Below are positions 3,405 through 46,940 of a stretch of DNA of 64,000 bases, piece by piece. The position numbers and the translations under genes were made by a program. Source of the DNA: an uncultured virus (IMG/VR IMGVR_UViG_3300012147_000007) (Duplodnaviria; Heunggongvirae; Uroviricota; Caudoviricetes). The DNA lies in IMG/VR virus record IMGVR_UViG_3300012147_000007, positions 1-64,000 of that record; one strand, written 5' to 3'. The notes beneath the pieces are model-generated. The model worked only from the letters and a program-made list of their open reading frames with translations. It was not told the DNA's origin and made no database searches. Numbering within the stretch: position 1 is the stretch's first letter; each line of letters starts with the position of its first letter.

Positions 3405-3502
3405 TGGACAATACGAGAATCGAACTCGTATCTCCAGTTTGCGCTATCCTGTGTGGTTGCACTTCATAGCCTTCACCGATTTACCAATTAATCTAATTGC
3501 CC
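3405..3502 (-). ncRNA. tRNA-like RNA with G3:U70/A73 and expanded anticodon domain
   Basis: GGGCAAT/ATTGTCC-A, normal D and T arms, ~40-nt insert in place of anticodon arm. Confidence 0.7.
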
Positions 3503-3507
3503 TTTTG

Positions 3508-3577
3508 TTGGTGTAGAGGGACTCAAACCCCCGACCCCCTGAATTACAGGTGCTCTAATCAACTGAGCTATACACCG
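3508..3577 (-). ncRNA. tRNA-like RNA with shortened anticodon arm
   Basis: C1:A72 mismatch, normal D/T arms, 13-nt arm CCTG-TAATT-CAGG. Confidence 0.7.
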
Positions 3578-6109: not shown

Positions 6110-6195
6110 GGTGAAAGATGGGTTCTGACCCCACGACCTCCCGATTCACAGTCGGGCGCTCTACGACTTTCGTCTCCAGCTGAGCTACAATCACC
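6110..6195 (-). tRNA. tRNA-His (GTG), D-loop hairpin insertion
   Basis: G-1/C73, CCCGA-CTGTGAA-TCGGG, GAC-GAAA-GTC in D loop, T loop GTCAGAA. Confidence 0.8.
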
Positions 6196-11173: not shown

Positions 11174-12110
11174 AGCCTGAGTTTACAGCATTTATTAGCG
11201 TCCTTTAATGACCTTACCCACATCATCTTGCGGTTAATCAATGTATCCACGCACCCTTTCAGGTGGTATACGCCAGTCTCGATACCTATGGGGTATCATT
11301 CCTATCGTGCAATCTAACTCTGTATTTTCCACCTACACTATCTTGCCAGACATATGCGAGCTTTCGTTACAATCGACACCCACCTTGCGAGGATGAATGA
11401 CTCCCTGATTCTGCCGAAGCATCCAGGGTCTGAGAGACCTTTTAATATACACGCCCATGAGACTTTCACTTTTTTTCTGTTTATAGTAAAAACCAGCCAT
11501 GCCAAGGCTAATATATACTGCATGAGATATACAGTACGAAGAGACGTGCCCACAGGAGTGGTTTCATAACTTTTTGGTTACAAAATGCCACACGCCTCTC
11601 TGTTAGTCTATGCTGACCAACAATTAAACCCGAATTACTTTCTACGAATAGTTAAGTAACCAAATCCAAATGAGATGAAGCCCTTGCGTTTCTTACACGC
11701 TCGAACAACACAACTAAGCTTTTCCTTTTCATCAGCCGAAGCCAACTTTTTTTGCAAAATTTCTAATGCTCAACTACCATTTTTAATCTCATGATAGTTT
11801 ACCTTGTCCAGGTAAGTACTCACTTATTGCATAGGTGTCCAACAGAATAAATTCTGAAGGCGAGGGTGACACCCCCTTTTATAGCTTGTTACCAAACTTT
11901 ATCTTCCCACAAGGGGCTTGCAATGATTTTCATCACCACGAGACTCTACACAGCCTCAAAATGATTGTTATTTGAATTGTAAAAGCTGGTTCATGTTACA
12001 TAACCAATTTAAAAGCGAAGGACTCTGCTATATTTCATACAGTTGAATGTTTGTCCCATTCTCACTTTCCTCACTTACTCTTACTGTCGAATGGACCTAA
12101 ACATTTAGAC
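11174..12110 (-). ncRNA. Large structured ncRNA, GOLLD-like
   Basis: ~940 nt without credible ORF, raised GC, many GNRA/UUCG hairpins, 3' end CTGTAAACTCAGGC, next to tRNA-like genes; family call from recalled motifs. Confidence 0.65.
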
Positions 12111-12921: not shown

Positions 12922-12992
12922 GAATCCATACGGGATTCGAACCCGTGCCTCCTGCCGAAAGGCAAGCGCTCTATCCGCTGAGCTAATGGACA
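12922..12992 (-). ncRNA. tRNA-like RNA, anticodon loop reduced
   Basis: Arg-like D arm, arm CTTGCC-TTTC-GGCAGG, canonical T arm. Confidence 0.7.
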
Positions 12993-13076: not shown

Positions 13077-13176
13077 TGGCGAAGGGAGGATTCGAAACCT
13101 CCGACCCCCAATGCTGTCCATTCTTTCACAAGAACAACTAACACACTGGTGCTCTGACCAACTGAGCTACCTCGCC
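13077..13176 (-). ncRNA. Met-like tRNA body with elongated anticodon arm
   Basis: GGCGAGG/CTTCGCC-A; ~42-nt arm capped by TTCTT-GTGA-AAGAA. Confidence 0.75.
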
Positions 13177-13218
13177 AAATGATGATGTAGTCACTTACGC
13201 AGCAACACCATCAATTTT

Positions 13219-19480: not shown

Positions 19481-19485
19481 GTTTG

Positions 19486-19640
19486 TGGACATGGGAGGAA
19501 TTAAACCCAAGACGTAAATCTCGCTTACTTTGCTCCTGAAATGACTAATGCGCACTTATCAATTCACTCACGTTTCAACCCTTAGCTTTCTTAGCACCAA
19601 CACCAAAGTTGGGACGGTTCATCTCACCGCAAGCATATCC
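19486..19640 (-). ncRNA. 155-nt RNA with tRNA-like ends
   Basis: GGATATG/CATGTCC-A, degenerate T arm, GCTTGC/GTAAGC stem enclosing several hairpins. Confidence 0.55.
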
Positions 19641-19675
19641 ATATTTGCCTATTTATAGTCGTAGCAAGGACTTTG

Positions 19676-35110: not shown

Positions 35111-35113
35111 AAG

Positions 35114-35197
35114 TGATGCAAGCAAGCCAGGTTCTGCTCCTGGTTCCGCCTAAGCGGTATGCTCTGATGAACGTTCTTTTACAACATTACTCACATC
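35114..35197 (-). ncRNA. Multi-arm small RNA with 11-bp closing stem
   Basis: GATGTGAGTAA/TTGCTTGCATC, CCGC-TTAG-GCGG, CCAGG-AGCAGAA-CCTGG. Confidence 0.55.
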
Positions 35198-36433: not shown

Positions 36434-36438
36434 AGTTG

Positions 36439-36520
36439 CACGGGGGTGAGGATTCGAACCTCACTCATCTTAAGGGAGCGACCCCTCAGATTTCCAGTGT
36501 AGCTACACTTCAAACCCCGT
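36439..36520 (-). ncRNA. tRNA-like RNA without canonical D/anticodon arms
   Basis: ACGGGG/CCCCGT, GTGAGG-TTCGAAT-CCTCAC, two tetraloop arms. Confidence 0.6.
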
Positions 36521-36528
36521 GTATATTG

Positions 36529-41253: not shown

Positions 41254-41883
41254 TTACTTTAAAACCCACTGATAGTATCCAGGTTTTTTGTTGTTATCCA
41301 ATCTTTCAAATAAACCAGACTTATAAACACCATGTGTGTTATGCAGATTTGAGCCTTGCTCTTTTTCGTCTTTATCATACACCTTCCATGTATAATAATG
41401 ATGCATATTTGGTTTTAACTCTTTGTTGTCAACCTCTTTGTTTTGAAACCAGGTCCAACCATCTTTTGCATTGTCTGAATTTCTTTTTATGTTTTCATCA
41501 AAAAATCTCTTTTCCATTTCATACTCTTCATCCCAAGCTTCTTTTGCAATCTTCAAGATTCTATCCTCTCTTTCTTTTCTTTGCTCTGGGAATGAATATG
41601 TAAGTTCAAACTTAAACATCTTCTTAATGTTATCCCAATTATCTGGGTCATGTAAATCAAAGTGATGTTCAACAAAGCCATCAATATCTCTGCAATGCAA
41701 ATCTATCTTAGAACCTTTTGTTGAATATACGTAGTTTCCATCTTCATCAATGTATGAGTATGGGCCATCCCAGTATCCAGCTTTGTGTTCTGCGAAAACT
41801 GGGATTCCACCCTCCATTCTTATATGAGCATTACCTTCTGGGTCTGCCTCTTGAAGCATTTTTATAAATTCTGATGTTGTCAT
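41254..41883 (-). CDS. hypothetical protein
   Basis: 209-aa ORF. Confidence 0.75.
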   Translation of the reverse strand: MTTSEFIKMLQEADPEGNAHIRMEGGIPVFAEHKAGYWDGPYSYIDEDGNYVYSTKGSKIDLHCRDIDGFVEHHFDLHDPDNWDNIKKMFKFELTYSFPEQRKEREDRILKIAKEAWDEEYEMEKRFFDENIKRNSDNAKDGWTWFQNKEVDNKELKPNMHHYYTWKVYDKDEKEQGSNLHNTHGVYKSGLFERLDNNKKPGYYQWVLK

Positions 41884-42365
41884 TACTGTAAGATTTTTTT
41901 GATTTCTAACTTCAATGTTTCCGAATCAGAACTTGCGTCAATAAACCTTTTGACAATATCCCACTTAACTTTCATCTCTGCAGATGGTTTAACTGACTTA
42001 TGCTTCATCTCCTGACGGAACACATTGTTCTTAAGCATTCCAAGATGATTCTTTGTTGTAACCCAACTTGTGTCAGCCACCTTGACATTAACCTTTCCAC
42101 CTTCAATCGTAACCGCTACATAGTGTAGTTTACCATCAAATGTTGTTGAGAATACTTTGCAGTAATCTTCTTTAAAATCCTTGTCCCACACGTATTTCGT
42201 TTGGAAATAATGCTTCTCTGAAGCTTTTAGGTAATCCGATACCATCTTGTCTAATTGTTCTTGCGTAGGTATTACCTTCACTGATTTTTCTTTTTTCATA
42301 ACTTTTGTTTTTACTGTTTCTAACGTTTTCATAATTTTTGTTTTTAAATTTTTAATTGATTTCAT
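41883..42365 (-). CDS. hypothetical protein
   Basis: ORF coupled to next gene. Confidence 0.7.
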   Translation of the reverse strand: MKSIKNLKTKIMKTLETVKTKVMKKEKSVKVIPTQEQLDKMVSDYLKASEKHYFQTKYVWDKDFKEDYCKVFSTTFDGKLHYVAVTIEGGKVNVKVADTSWVTTKNHLGMLKNNVFRQEMKHKSVKPSAEMKVKWDIVKRFIDASSDSETLKLEIKKILQ

Positions 42366-42378
42366 TGTTTTTGATTTT

Positions 42379-42804
42379 TTATTGTTCACTGCATGGTGGG
42401 TGACCAAACTTGTGAAAGTACTTCAAGGGTCTTTTAAATTTACCATCAACCCAGAATCCCCACTTCCTTTTACTTCTTCCAGAGAATACGAGTGTCCAAC
42501 ACCCTCCTTCTGGTACATCCACATAATGAGCATGAGTTGCTTTTCTGTATCTGATAGAACCTGCTTTCATCAAGTCTCTTCCATCATTTGATACATCTGT
42601 ATAACTCCCTTTCAATACACATGTTAGGAATGACCATCCGTGGTCGTGCATGTACCTCTTGTCATCGCTTCTAATGAAATGATGAATTCTGATGGCGAAG
42701 AAGTGAAAATTAAATATCCATCTATACGCATAAGGGCACTCTTTTTCTCCAAGAGCCTCATTCCACCTTACTTGAATTGGTCTGTATTTCTTAAACTTTT
42801 TCAT
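42379..42804 (-). CDS. Cupin-like protein
   Basis: IHHFIRSDD..HDHGWSF..GSY..H. Confidence 0.7.
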   Translation of the reverse strand: MKKFKKYRPIQVRWNEALGEKECPYAYRWIFNFHFFAIRIHHFIRSDDKRYMHDHGWSFLTCVLKGSYTDVSNDGRDLMKAGSIRYRKATHAHYVDVPEGGCWTLVFSGRSKRKWGFWVDGKFKRPLKYFHKFGHPPCSEQ

Positions 42805-43310
42805 TTTTCTAAATTTATAAGAATTGTGGGTACAGTTTTTCCATCCTCCATATAAGAATTATCTGGGAGGACTGTGATTGTGTAACTCTTATCTTCGAGC
42901 CACTTACGAAATTTAATTTGAAGTTCCGAATTTCCAGTCATCCAATAAGGAGACATGATAGAAATGATTTTTCCACCCTCTTTAACGCAATCATACATCT
43001 TCATGACATGTTCGCAGTCGATGTTGTCTTTGAAGTTTGGTGCGCCAATTACTCGGTCATATAAATACTTTGGTTTGAAGTCAAGAAAATTGCTCCAAAT
43101 AACATTGAACCCCTTATCTCTCAATACCTCTTTGCATTGCGAGTTAAGTTCAATACAATCCAAATCAATGTTTGGATTATGTTTAAGAATGCCTTCGGCT
43201 AATAAGCCAACTCCTGCAGATGGTTCAAGGACTTTGTGCCCATCTTGTATATCAGCCACCTACATGAAGTGGTCAATAACTGACTGTGTTGTTTCTCTTT
43301 TTGTTTTCAT
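42801..43310 (-). CDS. SAM-dependent methyltransferase-like protein with in-frame TAG at codon 17
   Basis: MKTKRETTQSVIDHFM*VADIQDGHKVLEPSAGVG; NPPF position reads APNF. Confidence 0.75.
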
Positions 43311-43326
43311 TTTTACTTATATTTAG

Positions 43327-43474
43327 TGGCACAGGGTGGGCTCGAACCAACGACCTCTGGGTTACGGTGAGTGAATCTTTTTCACTTTACACATACTACT
43401 CGCCTTATTACGTAATTCACGCTTTTGCTCGGTAACCTTATCTCCAGCGCTCTAACCAACTGAGCTACTACGCC
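43327..43474 (-). ncRNA. Met-like tRNA body with ~75-nt insert in anticodon loop
   Basis: GGCGTAG/CTGTGCC-A, canonical D and T arms, insert closed by GGTTAC/GTAACC. Confidence 0.75.
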
Positions 43475-43525
43475 TGGTGCCGCAGGGAGGAATGACCCTC
43501 CACTTTATAGCCTGATGGCTGCAGC
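43475..43525 (-). ncRNA. ~50-nt mini-tRNA with encoded ACCA
   Basis: GCTGCAG...TATAAAG-T-GGAGG-GTCATT-CCTCC-CTGCGGC-ACCA. Confidence 0.65.
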
Positions 43526-43531
43526 GTGTTG

Positions 43532-43583
43532 TGGGAGAACCAGGATTCGAACCTGAGATTGATACCTTACATATCTTTCTCCC
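43532..43583 (-). ncRNA. 52-nt tRNA-like RNA lacking one arm
   Basis: GGGAGAA/TTCTCCC-A, GATAT..GTATC hairpin, CAGG-TTCGAAT-CCTG. Confidence 0.65.
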
Positions 43584-43588
43584 ATTTG

Positions 43589-43726
43589 TGCCCGTGAGTG
43601 GATTCGAACCAAAGAACTCTTTTCCCACTTTGTTGCAACGTTTCGGAATCGAGTGCAAGAATATACCAACTGTTACTCCTCACAATTAAACGTTATCATT
43701 GCGTCTTGTAATCTTGCATCACGGGC
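43589..43726 (-). ncRNA. 138-nt RNA with tRNA acceptor stem and T loop
   Basis: GCCCGTG/CACGGGC-A, GGTTCGAATCC, TGCAAGA/TCTTGCA stem. Confidence 0.6.
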
Positions 43727-43731
43727 GTTTG

Positions 43732-43807
43732 TGGCGAATGAAGGGTTCGAACCTCCGACCTCTGCCATCCGAAGATGATAGCGCTCTACCAACTGAGCTA
43801 ATTCGCC
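43732..43807 (-). ncRNA. Met-like tRNA body with cUUCGg-capped anticodon arm
   Basis: CTATCATC-TTCG-GATGGCAG. Confidence 0.75.
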
Positions 43808-43856
43808 TGGTGCAGTGGGGAAGTTTGACCTCCCGCTTTATAACCGAGTCACTGCG
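43808..43856 (-). ncRNA. ~50-nt mini-tRNA with encoded ACCA
   Basis: GCAGTG...TATAAAG-C-GGGAG-GTCAAA-CTTCC-CCACTGC-ACCA. Confidence 0.65.
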
Positions 43857-43865
43857 TATGTTTTG

Positions 43866-43937
43866 TGGTCCATATCGGGCTCGAACCGACAACCTGCGGG
43901 GTTAGAATCCGCTGCTCTACCATTGAGCTAATAGACC
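43866..43937 (-). tRNA. Amber suppressor tRNA (CTA)
   Basis: Canonical cloverleaf; GCGGA-TT-CTA-AC-CCCGC. Confidence 0.85.
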
Positions 43938-43993
43938 TTGTTGTCCTTGGGGCTGGGATTTGAAAATTGTTTCTATTTATATAAAAACAAAAT

Positions 43994-44695
43994 ATGAAAC
44001 CACTATTCACCGACAAGGAATATAATTCTGCTAAATCAATGGACAAATTATCATGCGAGTGTTATTATTGCGAAGAAGCTTTTTATGAAATCAAGAAAAG
44101 AATCACAGAATTCAAAAAAGGAAACTCTACCAGAACATTGAAGTCTTGTTCTAAAAAAGAATGCAAAGCTAAGCAGCAATCAAAAACACACAATAAACAA
44201 AAGTTAGTAACATGTGAAAACTGCGATAAAGAGTTCTCCAAAACAAGAAGTCAAATTAAAAAATCTAATAATAACTTCTGCTCTCGCTCCTGCAGCGCAA
44301 CCCACAACAATAAAAACAAGACTCATGGTACTCGTAGGTCAAAACTTGAAGTATGGCTGGAGGAGCAACTTGCCTATCTGTATCCAGAGCTTAAAATTCA
44401 TTATAATCAAAAAGATGCAATAAATTCAGAGTTAGATATATACATACCAAGTTTTAACCTTGCAATTGAAATAAATGGTATTTTTCACTACAAACCTATA
44501 TTCGGAGAAGATAAGTTTAATAATATTATAAAAAATGACCAAAATAAATTACAAGCATGTATTGATGAAGGTATCGAAATAATATCAATTGATGTTTCTC
44601 AAATGAATTATTTCAAGCCAAAAAAGGCTCAAAAATACCTTGACATCATTTGTCAATTAATTAGCAATAAGTCAAAGAACATGTTAAAATCTTAG
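43994..44695 (+). CDS. Zn-finger + PD-(D/E)XK-like homing endonuclease
   Basis: FCSRSC, RSKLE, ELDIYIP..IEINGIFHY. Confidence 0.85.
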   Translation: MKPLFTDKEYNSAKSMDKLSCECYYCEEAFYEIKKRITEFKKGNSTRTLKSCSKKECKAKQQSKTHNKQKLVTCENCDKEFSKTRSQIKKSNNNFCSRSCSATHNNKNKTHGTRRSKLEVWLEEQLAYLYPELKIHYNQKDAINSELDIYIPSFNLAIEINGIFHYKPIFGEDKFNNIIKNDQNKLQACIDEGIEIISIDVSQMNYFKPKKAQKYLDIICQLISNKSKNMLKS

Positions 44696-44751
44696 TCACT
44701 CCATTGAGTGTGCAGCAACCACTACGTGCAAGTGTTTTAACTTTGGTTACC

Positions 44752-44828
44752 TCCTGGCGGCTGAGATTCGAACTCACGACCTCTATCAAATATCAGGATA
44801 GCGCTCTAACCAACTGAGCTACGCCAGG
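44752..44828 (-). ncRNA. Ile-like tRNA with 9-nt anticodon loop
   Basis: CTATC-CTGATATTT-GATAG. Confidence 0.65.
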
Positions 44829-44852
44829 TTGTTTTTATATTTCATCACATCA

Positions 44853-45281
44853 TTATGATGCTGTTTTTTTAATGTTATTAATATGAAAATTACTAACAGG
44901 GTCTTCTTTTATTCCTTGAGAATCAACCCACTGTTCGTAGTATTCTTTTTGAGCAAGACGTAAGCTACCTGTTAACCTACGAGCTTGGTCGCATGCTTCA
45001 ATAGCCATAGATGTTGCTTTATGATTTAAGTCTGGTTCACGAAATACAGAAACACACACTCCTCTTTGTCGAAGTTTTTCAACAAGAGACAATAAAGACT
45101 CTTCGTCTTCAATTGATAAACATGCTACGTATTGTGAATTTTCGTACCATTCCTTAAATTGGTCTGGATACTCGACTGCAAATTGAGACATTGCATGAGC
45201 CGATTGCGCAATTTGAGCTCCAGGATGCAAATCTCTTGTAACAACTATTCTAAGTTTTTCATTATTTTTTACCTATTTCAT
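44853..45281 (-). CDS. Peptidyl-tRNA hydrolase, Pth2-like, in-frame TAG at codon 3
   Basis: MK*VKNNEKLRIVVTRDLHPGAQIAQSAHA...FREPDL..T. Confidence 0.8.
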
Positions 45282-45349
45282 ATCTAAGTTATTTTTAATT
45301 ATTTTGGTGTTTATTTTTATACGTAAAAATTTATAAAATGTTTCTATAA

Positions 45350-46462
45350 TTATAAACTTTCTATTAATTGACTCATTTTCTTTAACAAATCTTCATTATA
45401 TGCAATTCTTAATAATTTAATTTCACTTTTACTACAGTAATCAGTTTTAATGCTATCGTTTATTTGCGTTAATTCCAATGCTTTTTCTCCCCCAAAATAA
45501 TCAATAGACTTAAAATGTTGCCTACCATCAAATTCAATACAAATATTGTAATCAGGCAAGTAAAAATCAAATGGTAACTCCATTATATTCCTACATTCTT
45601 TAAATTTCTTCTGCCTTTCAAATTTTATTAAATTTTCTTTTAATAATTTTGAAATCCTTTTTTCTCCCTTTGACTCATTGCAATGTGGACAACCAATACC
45701 TCTAATGTGATGTGTTGGCACCTGCTCAAATTCATCGTGAACTGGGCAAATTATTTTTATTTTTGTTTTAGAGTTAATATATTTAACAAAAGAATAATCA
45801 TATTTATTCTCATGAATCAAATGTGACTCCATTATAAAATATTCTTGTGATTTTTTAAGCTTATCAGCACGCTCTATTATAGCGCATTTATTACAACCAC
45901 GCCCAGATAAATGGTCATGAGGAGTTTGTTGAAATTGTCCATGATTTGGACAAATTATTACAATTGGTTTTTTTGAATTGTTATATTCCGTAAAAGAGTA
46001 ATCATATTTATTTGAATGGACACTTTGAGCTCTTACTTTGAAATCTTCGAGAGTTAACTTCATTCTATCATTCCCACACGATGGACAACCCCTATTAGAT
46101 AGGTGATTCAAAGGCATTTGATTAAATTCTCCATGATTTTGACAAATTATTGTAACTGGAGTTTTATAATTCTTATAATTTACTTTGCTATAATTGTAGC
46201 AATCACCATGAATTGATATTGCTTTTTTTACAAATTCTTCTTTTGATAAGGATTGTTTGTATGATTTTTTTAAGTTTCCACAACCTGGACAACCAACCCC
46301 ATTAGCGTGATGAAAAGGCAATTGATTAAACACTCCATGAACTGGACATTTTATATCTATTTTAGTTCTTGCATTTTTATATTCTACAAGACTATAATCG
46401 TAAAAATTATTATGAATTTTTTGCGCCTTTTTAATGAAGATGTTTTTGTTTTTTTCTTTCAT
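45350..46462 (-). CDS. Homing endonuclease with DUF723-like repeats and PD-(D/E)XK-like domain
   Basis: 4x YDYS..Y....IICP.HG.F.Q; SKGE, LPFDFY, IEFDGRQH. Confidence 0.88.
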   Translation of the reverse strand: MKEKNKNIFIKKAQKIHNNFYDYSLVEYKNARTKIDIKCPVHGVFNQLPFHHANGVGCPGCGNLKKSYKQSLSKEEFVKKAISIHGDCYNYSKVNYKNYKTPVTIICQNHGEFNQMPLNHLSNRGCPSCGNDRMKLTLEDFKVRAQSVHSNKYDYSFTEYNNSKKPIVIICPNHGQFQQTPHDHLSGRGCNKCAIIERADKLKKSQEYFIMESHLIHENKYDYSFVKYINSKTKIKIICPVHDEFEQVPTHHIRGIGCPHCNESKGEKRISKLLKENLIKFERQKKFKECRNIMELPFDFYLPDYNICIEFDGRQHFKSIDYFGGEKALELTQINDSIKTDYCSKSEIKLLRIAYNEDLLKKMSQLIESL

Positions 46463-46489
46463 ACTAATAAGTAGTAAAAAATTTTCAAC

Positions 46490-46564
46490 AAGTTGTGCGC
46501 CAGGATGAATATCACGTATTGTGACTATTCTTAATTTTGAATTATTAATCTATAAGTTTTTCAT
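46490..46564 (-). pseudogene. Displaced 5' remnant of Pth2-like gene (also with early TAG)
   Basis: MKNL*INNSKLRIVTIRDIHPGAQL. Confidence 0.8.
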
Positions 46565-46697
46565 AACTTGTTTTTATAATTTGTTTCTTTCAATTATATA
46601 TACGCAAATATAAGACAAAATGTTCTATAAATGCAAATCTTTTTTAATCTTTTTTTACAAATCCCTTATTTTACTGGGACTGTAGAGTAAAATTTTT

Positions 46698-46940
46698 TTA
46701 GTCTTCACTGCTCCCGTTTGCAATCATTTTGATGATGAACGCAATTATATGAGCAATCAACCATCCAATTCCAAGGTCTGCATAAACAATATAATACATT
46801 ATAAGCAGCCTTGGAAACACTAACGAACCCAATACATCAAAAAACAAAGGGACATTGTTATGCGGAATTCCTCCAGCAAGATAAGCTATAAATAAACTTA
46901 TCCTTGGAAAGAACAAACTGAATAATAGTAATAACGTCAT
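46698..46940 (-). CDS. Small membrane protein
   Basis: Hydrophobic, two FPR motifs. Confidence 0.7.
   Translation of the reverse strand: MTLLLLFSLFFPRISLFIAYLAGGIPHNNVPLFFDVLGSLVFPRLLIMYYIVYADLGIGWLIAHIIAFIIKMIANGSSED

Follow-up and report, generated by a model that had tools for sequence, protein, structure and literature searches.

Candidate tRNA top-half mimics with encoded CCA ends in a duplicated module of a phage tRNA array

Background

The tRNA cluster of phage T4 contains two small RNAs that are not tRNAs, RNAC and RNAD (species 1 and 2; NC_000866.4, 70908-71046 and 71053-71171). They are 139 and 119 nt long and abut tRNAs, RNAC has a T-arm-like end, and their function is given as not known in the accessible part of PMC9697503. 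The T-even phages also make dimeric pre-tRNAs in which two decoding tRNAs have fewer than 5 nt between them, so that one RNase P cut frees both units. Synthetic minihelices, which join an acceptor stem and a T arm into a top half of about 12 bp with an NCCA end, are likewise cleaved by RNase P (both according to the available sections of PMC11143913). The vertebrate mascRNA and menRNA are miniature tRNA mimics with acceptor stem, T arm, and CCA end, whose bodies of 57-58 nt are made by RNase P (PMC11693755, as far as its open text goes). In the YrlA group of Y RNAs (RF02553) a T arm is followed across a junction by a D arm, and a YUAY motif lies upstream of the T arm (excerpts of PMC4201824 and 10.1101/312249). 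Finally, theta ribozymes are minimal HDV-like ribozymes of about 50 nt beside phage tRNAs, which start at most 5 nt from the tRNA end and fold into a nested double pseudoknot (accessible text of PMC10879173).

The window analysed here is a stretch of 64,000 nt that forms part of a 117-kb record of an uncultured virus (IMG/VR IMGVR_UViG_3300012147_000007). Its minus strand carries a tRNA array with two copies of a mini-tRNA-like element, called minis in the following, each of which is directly followed by a tRNA body, its partner. In minus-strand order the array comprises:

43866..43937, minus strand: tRNA whose anticodon is CUA (amber); it opens the array and lies 10 nt upstream of copy B
43808..43855, minus strand: mini-tRNA-like copy B, 48 nt
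43732..43807, minus strand: partner B, GGCG tRNA body with abnormal anticodon arm
43589..43726, minus strand: tRNA-framed RNA of 138 nt with GCCCGUG/CACGGGC ends
43532..43583, minus strand: third small tRNA-like RNA, 52 nt if counted to the discriminator, with copy A following after 6 nt
43475..43525, minus strand: mini-tRNA-like copy A, 51 nt
43327..43474, minus strand: partner A, GGCG tRNA body with an 83-nt insert (Rfam tRNA, 41.5 bits)

Three further features adjoin the array:

43994..44695, plus strand (opposite to the array): homing-endonuclease-like ORF, 233 aa
44752..44828, minus strand: tRNA-like RNA with a 9-nt anticodon loop (GAU) and the same D arm as the partners
44853..45260, minus strand: ORF for a divergent Pth2-like protein of the peptidyl-tRNA hydrolase family (Pfam PTH2, E 2e-9)

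Comparison with known small RNAs

The minis are small non-tRNA RNAs abutting tRNAs in a phage tRNA cluster, as RNAC and RNAD are. However, at 48-51 nt they are much shorter and fold differently, and a search of the T4 tRNA cluster with covariance model R2 gave no hit, nor did the minis match RNAC or RNAD in sequence. The 138- and 148-nt units of the array are closer to RNAC and RNAD than the minis are. The tight spacing recalls the T-even dimers, but there both units decode, whereas in the present modules an anticodon arm is missing from the upstream unit and abnormal in the downstream one. With mascRNA and menRNA the minis share acceptor stem, T arm, and CCA end. In contrast to the D-loop GG, canonical T loop, anticodon-equivalent stem, and added CCA that the open text of PMC11693755 gives for these, the minis have no GG, a GUCA loop, a single-stranded UAUAAAG, and an encoded CCA. 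Neither an elbow between D-loop GG and T loop nor an anticodon-equivalent stem of the mascRNA type was found, the small loops being AUCA and UCG and the linker being single-stranded in copy A. No homology is implied, and both the T4 RNAs and mascRNA are analogues and not relatives. Compared to synthetic minihelices, the minis are encoded in a genome, duplicated, and extended by an internal segment of 14-17 nt between acceptor strand and T-like stem.

Size and location also suggest theta ribozymes, and copy B lies after a CUA suppressor tRNA. The minis, however, start 6 and 10 nt after the preceding discriminator, and a relaxed HDV descriptor, which is our own and not that of PMC10879173, gave nine hits at three other starts in a 650-nt region but none at G1 of either mini. 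A tmRNA family was not among the Rfam hits with E-values up to 10. The pair G3.U70 of the tmRNA head, which is the alanine determinant, is absent from both minis (U3.G70 in copy A, A3-U70 in copy B). The minis are not canonical tRNAs either. Neither ARAGORN nor the Rfam tRNA model (RF00005) gave a hit on them, they do not form a cloverleaf, and their loops, GUCAUU and GUCAAA(C), differ from the 7-nt UUCRANY T loop of RF00005. What they have in common with tRNAs is the acceptor end, namely a covarying stem of 6-7 bp followed by ACCA. The minis belong with the non-decoding RNAs of phage tRNA clusters, as an uncatalogued variant. Titles and abstract openings, to which our literature search extended, contain no description of this element.

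Paralogy and covariation of the two copies

That the array contains two paralogous mini-tRNA-like elements ending in ACCA had been proposed in a preliminary description of the sequence, and this is confirmed for the minus strand. The bounds given there hold for copy A, while copy B ends at 43855 and not at 43856, which is the C at position -1. An ungapped comparison of the copies, running from TATAAAG through the final acceptor base, gives 22 matches over 31 positions (binomial p 1.3e-7). When a covariance model is made from copy A alone, copy B scores 40.9 bits (E 6.8e-9), the next hit in the window reaching 15.2 bits. Applied to the plus and minus strands of the 117-kb record, a structural descriptor consisting of an acceptor stem, a T-like arm of 5 bp, and NCCA retrieved copies A and B together with a single unrelated TCCA hairpin on the plus strand (42000-42042).

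The stems of the two copies differ yet stay paired, as had been noted. In the model alignment all of the cells pair (29/29), with five pairs changed on both sides and one on one side. As a control, sliding the registers by one to three columns reduced pairing to 41-62% and left no double changes. When the same number of substitutions was placed randomly in the stems, all pairs were kept in 4-779 of 400,000 trials, corresponding to p-values of 1e-5 to 2e-3, or at most 0.2% of the trials. These values are favoured by the procedure, in which copy A supplied the structure to which copy B was then fitted, and the evidence base consists of two sequences from one duplication. In the 3' part 14 of the 17 unpaired positions are identical, while 11 of the 28 paired positions differ. 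Changed but paired stems together with fixed loops argue for selection on an RNA. In agreement with the strand, folding z-scores against shuffles are -2.9 and -2.8 on the minus strand and -0.6 and -0.7 on the plus strand. The minis are therefore very probably a selected structured RNA, and their structure is well supported in one phage lineage. They form a real, uncatalogued pair of mimics of the tRNA top half in a duplicated module. A coding explanation was rejected, since the minis contain only short overlapping ORFs.

Fold of the minis

Copy A has an acceptor-like stem of 6-7 bp (G1-C, C2-G, U3.G), a small hairpin, the linker UAUAAAGU, a 5-bp T-like stem with the loop GUCAUU, and ACCA. In copy B the acceptor-like stem has 6 bp (G1-C, C2-G, A3-U) and the linker UAUAAAGC is followed by a T-like arm with the loop GUCAAA(C) and by ACCA. 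The UAUAAAG linker and the GUCA start of the loop are invariant between the copies. The short hairpin that was described as shared is weak, comprising only 2-4 bp, and is missing from the predicted fold of copy B. Similarly, a GUCA loop of 6 nt on a 5-bp stem is predicted for copy A but not for copy B, whose T-like arm is shifted in the prediction to seven pairs with a 3-nt loop, leaving the register originally proposed with a probability of 0.01. The predicted acceptor of copy A comprises only 5 bp because AGCC/GGCU competes. Within the ensemble of the precursor each mini retains its own acceptor. Several features depart from tRNA: the T-like loops do not show the U54/A58 pattern, no D-loop GG is available for an elbow, and the distance from T loop to discriminator, as read from the letters, is 1 nt shorter than in tRNA, which may impair the action of RNase P.

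The CCA junction

In both modules the gap between the CCA of the mini and the GGCG body is zero, exactly as first reported, so that CCA is the entire spacer between mini and partner. The modules share the ten bases GCACCA|GGCG without a change, while bases of the flanking stems differ, and the junction has persisted through a divergence that altered 11 of 28 stem positions. Encoded CCA ends are rare in this phage, being present in two of the 32 tRNA-like genes of the window and in one of ten further genes in the identical phage record. Adjacent units are separated by a short spacer in 16 cases; a length of 3 nt occurs only behind the two minis, and the other spacers have 5-38 nt. Because the two minis derive from one duplication, the CCA junction counts as one origin.

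The helix of the mini ends 4 nt before G+1 of the partner in both modules. A comparable geometry is seen elsewhere in the window: the tRNA-like units that begin at 13176, 18237, and 35110 are each preceded, at a distance of 3-4 nt, by the end of an unrelated closed hairpin. These hairpins end in AUUU, ACAU, or ACUU, never in ACCA.

Partner tRNA bodies

The tRNA body that each mini adjoins starts with GGCG and its anticodon arm is abnormal, which bears out the repeated module of two RNAs. Partner A has normal D and T arms and a structured insert of 83 nt where the anticodon loop belongs, and therefore it cannot decode. Its CCA is not encoded, CTA following instead. Its acceptor stem is absent from the predicted fold, and forcing it costs about 2 kcal/mol. 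A spliced tRNA was considered and rejected, since rejoining does not yield a loop with U33 when read from the sequence. Partner B, which also lacks an encoded CCA, has two options for its arm. Either it forms a stem of 5-6 bp with the 7-nt loop AUCUUCG, which reads CUU and has U33 but also A32, C37, and G38, all atypical, together with a variable region that is long (8 nt), or it forms a longer stem capped by UUCG. With the 7-nt loop, partner B could be a variant tRNA-Lys(CUU) and not a pseudo-tRNA. The label pseudo-tRNA thus suits partner A and is uncertain for partner B.

The partners had also been called Met-like, which is not supported. Neither contains CAU, and the six bodies that score best with each partner include no Met tRNA. 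In a comparison of 157 tRNAs without their anticodon arms the partners are nearest to each other, followed by Thr, Val, Ala, Phe, and Asp. Among 40 listed phage matches to partner B, spread over 947 records, one is labelled Met and Thr is the commonest label. Together with a third GGCG body (13077-13176) the partners form a small phage-specific set. In this third body, on the minus strand of the window, a long GAAA-capped arm replaces the anticodon loop, and a closed hairpin (13177-13213, minus strand) ends 3-4 nt upstream of it.

Other units around the minis

The third small RNA (43532..43583) has a perfect 7-bp acceptor, a single 5-bp hairpin, and a canonical UUCGAAU T loop (folding z -2.8). 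It is not a paralogue of copies A and B and is more tRNA-like than either. The 138-nt RNA contains a T-loop-like GGUUCGAAUCC, and its middle is unrelated. The tRNA-like RNA at 44752..44828 has no mini upstream. The gene of the Pth2-like protein lies directly upstream of the array in the same orientation. Its product belongs to a virus-dominated family, does not align to the second Pth2 of the phage, and has A and E in place of K and D of a solved Pth2, the residues with a catalytic role.

The sequence TATTTATA recurs on the coding strand across the record, mostly 5-25 nt upstream of start codons, and is probably a promoter element of the phage; the endonuclease-like ORF has it 12 nt upstream of its ATG. 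TATAAAG as a promoter was rejected: the motif of the phage, TATTTATA, stands on the coding strand, while what the minis would provide on the plus strand is CTTTATA, and no gene follows it there. TATAAATA at 43981 is part of the endonuclease gene.

Additional tRNA-like genes with shortened or extended arms were seen on the minus strand of the window at 3405-3577, 6110-6194, and 12922-12992. Closed multi-hairpin or tRNA-framed RNAs lie between tRNA genes at 35111-35197, 36434-36522, and 19481-19674 (minus strand), of which the first two have folding z-scores of -3.2 and -3.1; none of the three has an Rfam match at the gathering threshold.

Distribution

The preliminary description had looked to homologues for support, and none were found beyond this phage and records near-identical to it. 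Pattern scans of viral sequences yielded 14, 34, 29, 7, and 8 loci, each comprising the three near-identical phage records and others without the full fold. The metagenome scan gave 20 loci, one of them identical, and the genome scan gave eight, none with both acceptor and ACCA. Pattern scans need exact motifs and therefore can miss diverged homologues. The best score of model R1 on 31 loci (612 kb) was 17.5 bits for an ordinary tRNA. Model R2 reached at best 22.4 bits outside the elements themselves on 78 pattern loci and 24.1 bits on 22 sources, both sets having been pre-selected by motif, and on whole records it hit one of 15, the identical phage. In blastn searches of 50,697 phage records copy B had no match, and copy A matched over 21 nt in five Xanthomonas/Erwinia phage records; in the one inspected the match is an intergenic hairpin without the remaining element.

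The closest relative examined at the DNA level (G004; 59% identity in the AAA protease, 90% in the portal) lacks the whole 5.7-kb block at 41254-46939, and its AAA-protease gene there abuts the NT5C gene. Closer relatives exist at the protein level, with identities of 56-73% for the AAA protease and mostly 61-88% for the Pth2-like protein, and the genes of both are near each other on one NCBI contig. As these closer relatives are known by their proteins only, absence of the minis outside this phage is weak evidence.

A different duplicated RNA of about 50 nt was observed in five other virus records (L157, L159, L160, L161, and L163) between tRNA-Asn, Gly, and Asp. It is absent from Rfam and does not match model R2. 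One of its copies has an ACCA directly against tRNA-Asp, and its stems covary.

Proposed processing and function

In the reading that explains the data best, to which we give slightly less than even chances, the minis are non-decoding top-half mimics that are released by RNase P and engage proteins acting on the tRNA acceptor end. An acceptor-like stem stacked on a T-like arm, together about 12 bp with ACCA, would mimic the top half of a tRNA. The whole array would be transcribed as a single precursor, in which host RNase P could cut at G+1 of the downstream tRNA bodies, whose D, T, and acceptor arms are intact. Because the spacer consists of CCA alone, one such cut would leave the mini with a finished CCA end, while other tRNAs of the phage would have to obtain theirs through trimming and CCA addition. 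A second cut at G+1 of the mini itself would set the 5' end, removing A/C-rich leaders of 6 and 10 nt. On balance it is slightly more likely than not that the minis are released in this way as discrete CCA-ended RNAs, although the missing acceptor of partner A in the predicted fold and the non-canonical T-like loops of the minis speak against it.

The last and weakest step concerns what the freed RNAs of 48-51 nt would do. They might act through CCA end and stem instead of a decoding site, with the invariant UAUAAAG linker and GUCA loop as a contact surface for a protein or for tertiary interactions. Host proteins that read acceptor ends, such as defence toxins modifying tRNA ends, synthetases, or EF-Tu, could be bound or diverted. 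Such a role as decoy or competitor is the one we favour, though only tentatively. Measured against the identity rules of the synthetases, the acceptor pairs fit no clear identity set. More doubtful still is a cassette in which the altered tRNA body serves as RNase P mark and the 48-51 nt minihelices act either as decoys for host defence toxins or enzymes attacking tRNA acceptor ends, or as aminoacylated carriers.

The gene content of the phage would suit such a role. The additional 78 kb of a near-identical record (G001) encode RtcB, Pnkp/Hen1, RlaP, and Tpt1, as well as MetRS, AsnRS, GluRS, an ArgRS-like protein, and the second Pth2, which brings the proteins of the Pth2 family to two. The phage also encodes an Rnl2-type ligase. 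This set of RNA-repair, synthetase, and Pth2 genes fits a conflict over tRNA. Repair systems against tRNA attack are common in jumbo phages (PMC7824862) and tRNA-cutting defences are widespread (PMC13434031), and the accessible parts of these two articles describe no CCA-end decoys of this kind. Irregular polycistrons of tRNAs have been described close to toxin-antitoxin genes (available text of PMC5389517). If the proposal is true, the minis would represent a class of phage counter-defence RNA that targets the CCA end instead of the anticodon. If the cassette is confirmed, they would be a natural counterpart of the laboratory minihelix, with altered tRNA bodies used as processing marks. They are short enough for synthesis, contain their own covariation control, and come with a clear prediction for processing, so that it can be tested directly whether phages release top-half mimics of tRNA and what these bind.

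Alternative explanations

The fixed geometry at the junction would also be expected if the minis were cis-acting structured leaders, gates for the maturation of the downstream body that are later degraded and leave the partner as the product, for instance a possible nuclease-resistant tRNA-Lys(CUU) variant in the case of partner B. The unrelated hairpins 3-4 nt before other units and the potential 7-nt loop of partner B with U33 and CUU agree with this. However, an exact CCA and a T-loop-like GUCA would both be superfluous in a leader, none of the other upstream hairpins ends in ACCA, and the body at 44752-44828 has the same D arm but no mini. We consider a leader unlikely.

It is somewhat less likely that the minis are decayed tRNA remnants, by-products of a fast-changing array that were duplicated once and now drift or are kept only because they do not block processing. 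The phage contains many odd tRNA-framed units, the surrounding block is accessory and adjoins a homing endonuclease gene, and homologues outside were not found. However, the substitutions in the 14 scored pairs all keep pairing at the p-values given above, and the linker UAUAAAG, which is not a tRNA sequence, is invariant. Drift predicts neither, which counts against remnants, and selection for mere foldability would not conserve the linker.

Mini and partner could also remain one RNA, either a larger one with two domains or a circularly permuted tRNA mimic like YrlA, in which the T arm of the mini, a closed acceptor loop, and the D arm of the partner would follow each other. Weak YrlA hits of 18.3 and 12.9 bits span the two junctions, and in each mini a YUAY lies upstream of the T arm, a feature that the excerpts of PMC4201824 give for YrlA. 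In addition, the 3' acceptor strand of copy A can make five pairs with the 5' strand of its partner, and GGYUA can pair with UAGCU of the partner in both modules. These junction scores, however, are what any abutting tRNA pair gives, since the YrlA model gives a better score, 27.3 bits, to an ordinary dimer of Glu and Thr tRNAs (its cut-off is 69). The closed acceptor hairpin is possible in copy A but has three of six pairs broken in copy B, and both cross-pairings have about zero ensemble weight. The Ro60-binding motif GNCGAAN0-1G (from the same excerpts of PMC4201824) has no match on the minus strand of 43301-43950. A TROVE gene (PF05731) was found in none of three records, the largest of which has 195 kb and is 78% complete, while control genomes match. 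A joined RNA is improbable.

An aminoacylated carrier used outside the ribosome, a natural minihelix that a synthetase of host or phage would charge and that might act with the Pth2-like protein, is equally improbable: free ACCA, G1-C72, C2-G71, and A73 in both copies as well as the phage synthetases and the co-oriented Pth2-like gene nearby would fit it, but pairs 3, 5, and 6 differ between the copies so that the shared identity is only G1-C, C2-G, G4-C, and A73, G3.U70 is missing, the Pth2-like protein has substituted K and D, and a phage MetRS without anticodon domain had to be rejected because the enzyme aligns to solved MetRS over its full length, including the anticodon-binding domain.

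Genomic setting

The record encodes a portal, baseplate, and terminase of the T4 type together with a sigma-70 factor, DnaE, and ribonucleotide reductase. The portal shares about 40% identity with the portals of Flavobacterium phage immuto and Microcystis phage Mel-JY01, and near-identical records extend to 195 kb and 364 kb. With 32 tRNA-like Rfam hits in the window, the setting is a T4-like jumbo phage with heavy investment in tRNA supply and repair. Although the phage encodes a CUA (amber) tRNA, 13 of 119 ORFs end in TAG; this does not support amber recoding, and read-through yields no general extension. The ArgRS-like protein (L070:3798-5012, plus strand) is short (404 aa) and divergent, and does not match a solved structure by sequence. 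The dense set of tRNA-repair and translation genes at loci L067, L068, and L069, to which RtcB, Pnkp/Hen1, RlaP, Tpt1, MetRS, AsnRS, and GluRS belong, also includes an L7/L12-like protein, and a GOLLD RNA is located on the minus strand of the window at 11174-11600 (169 bits).
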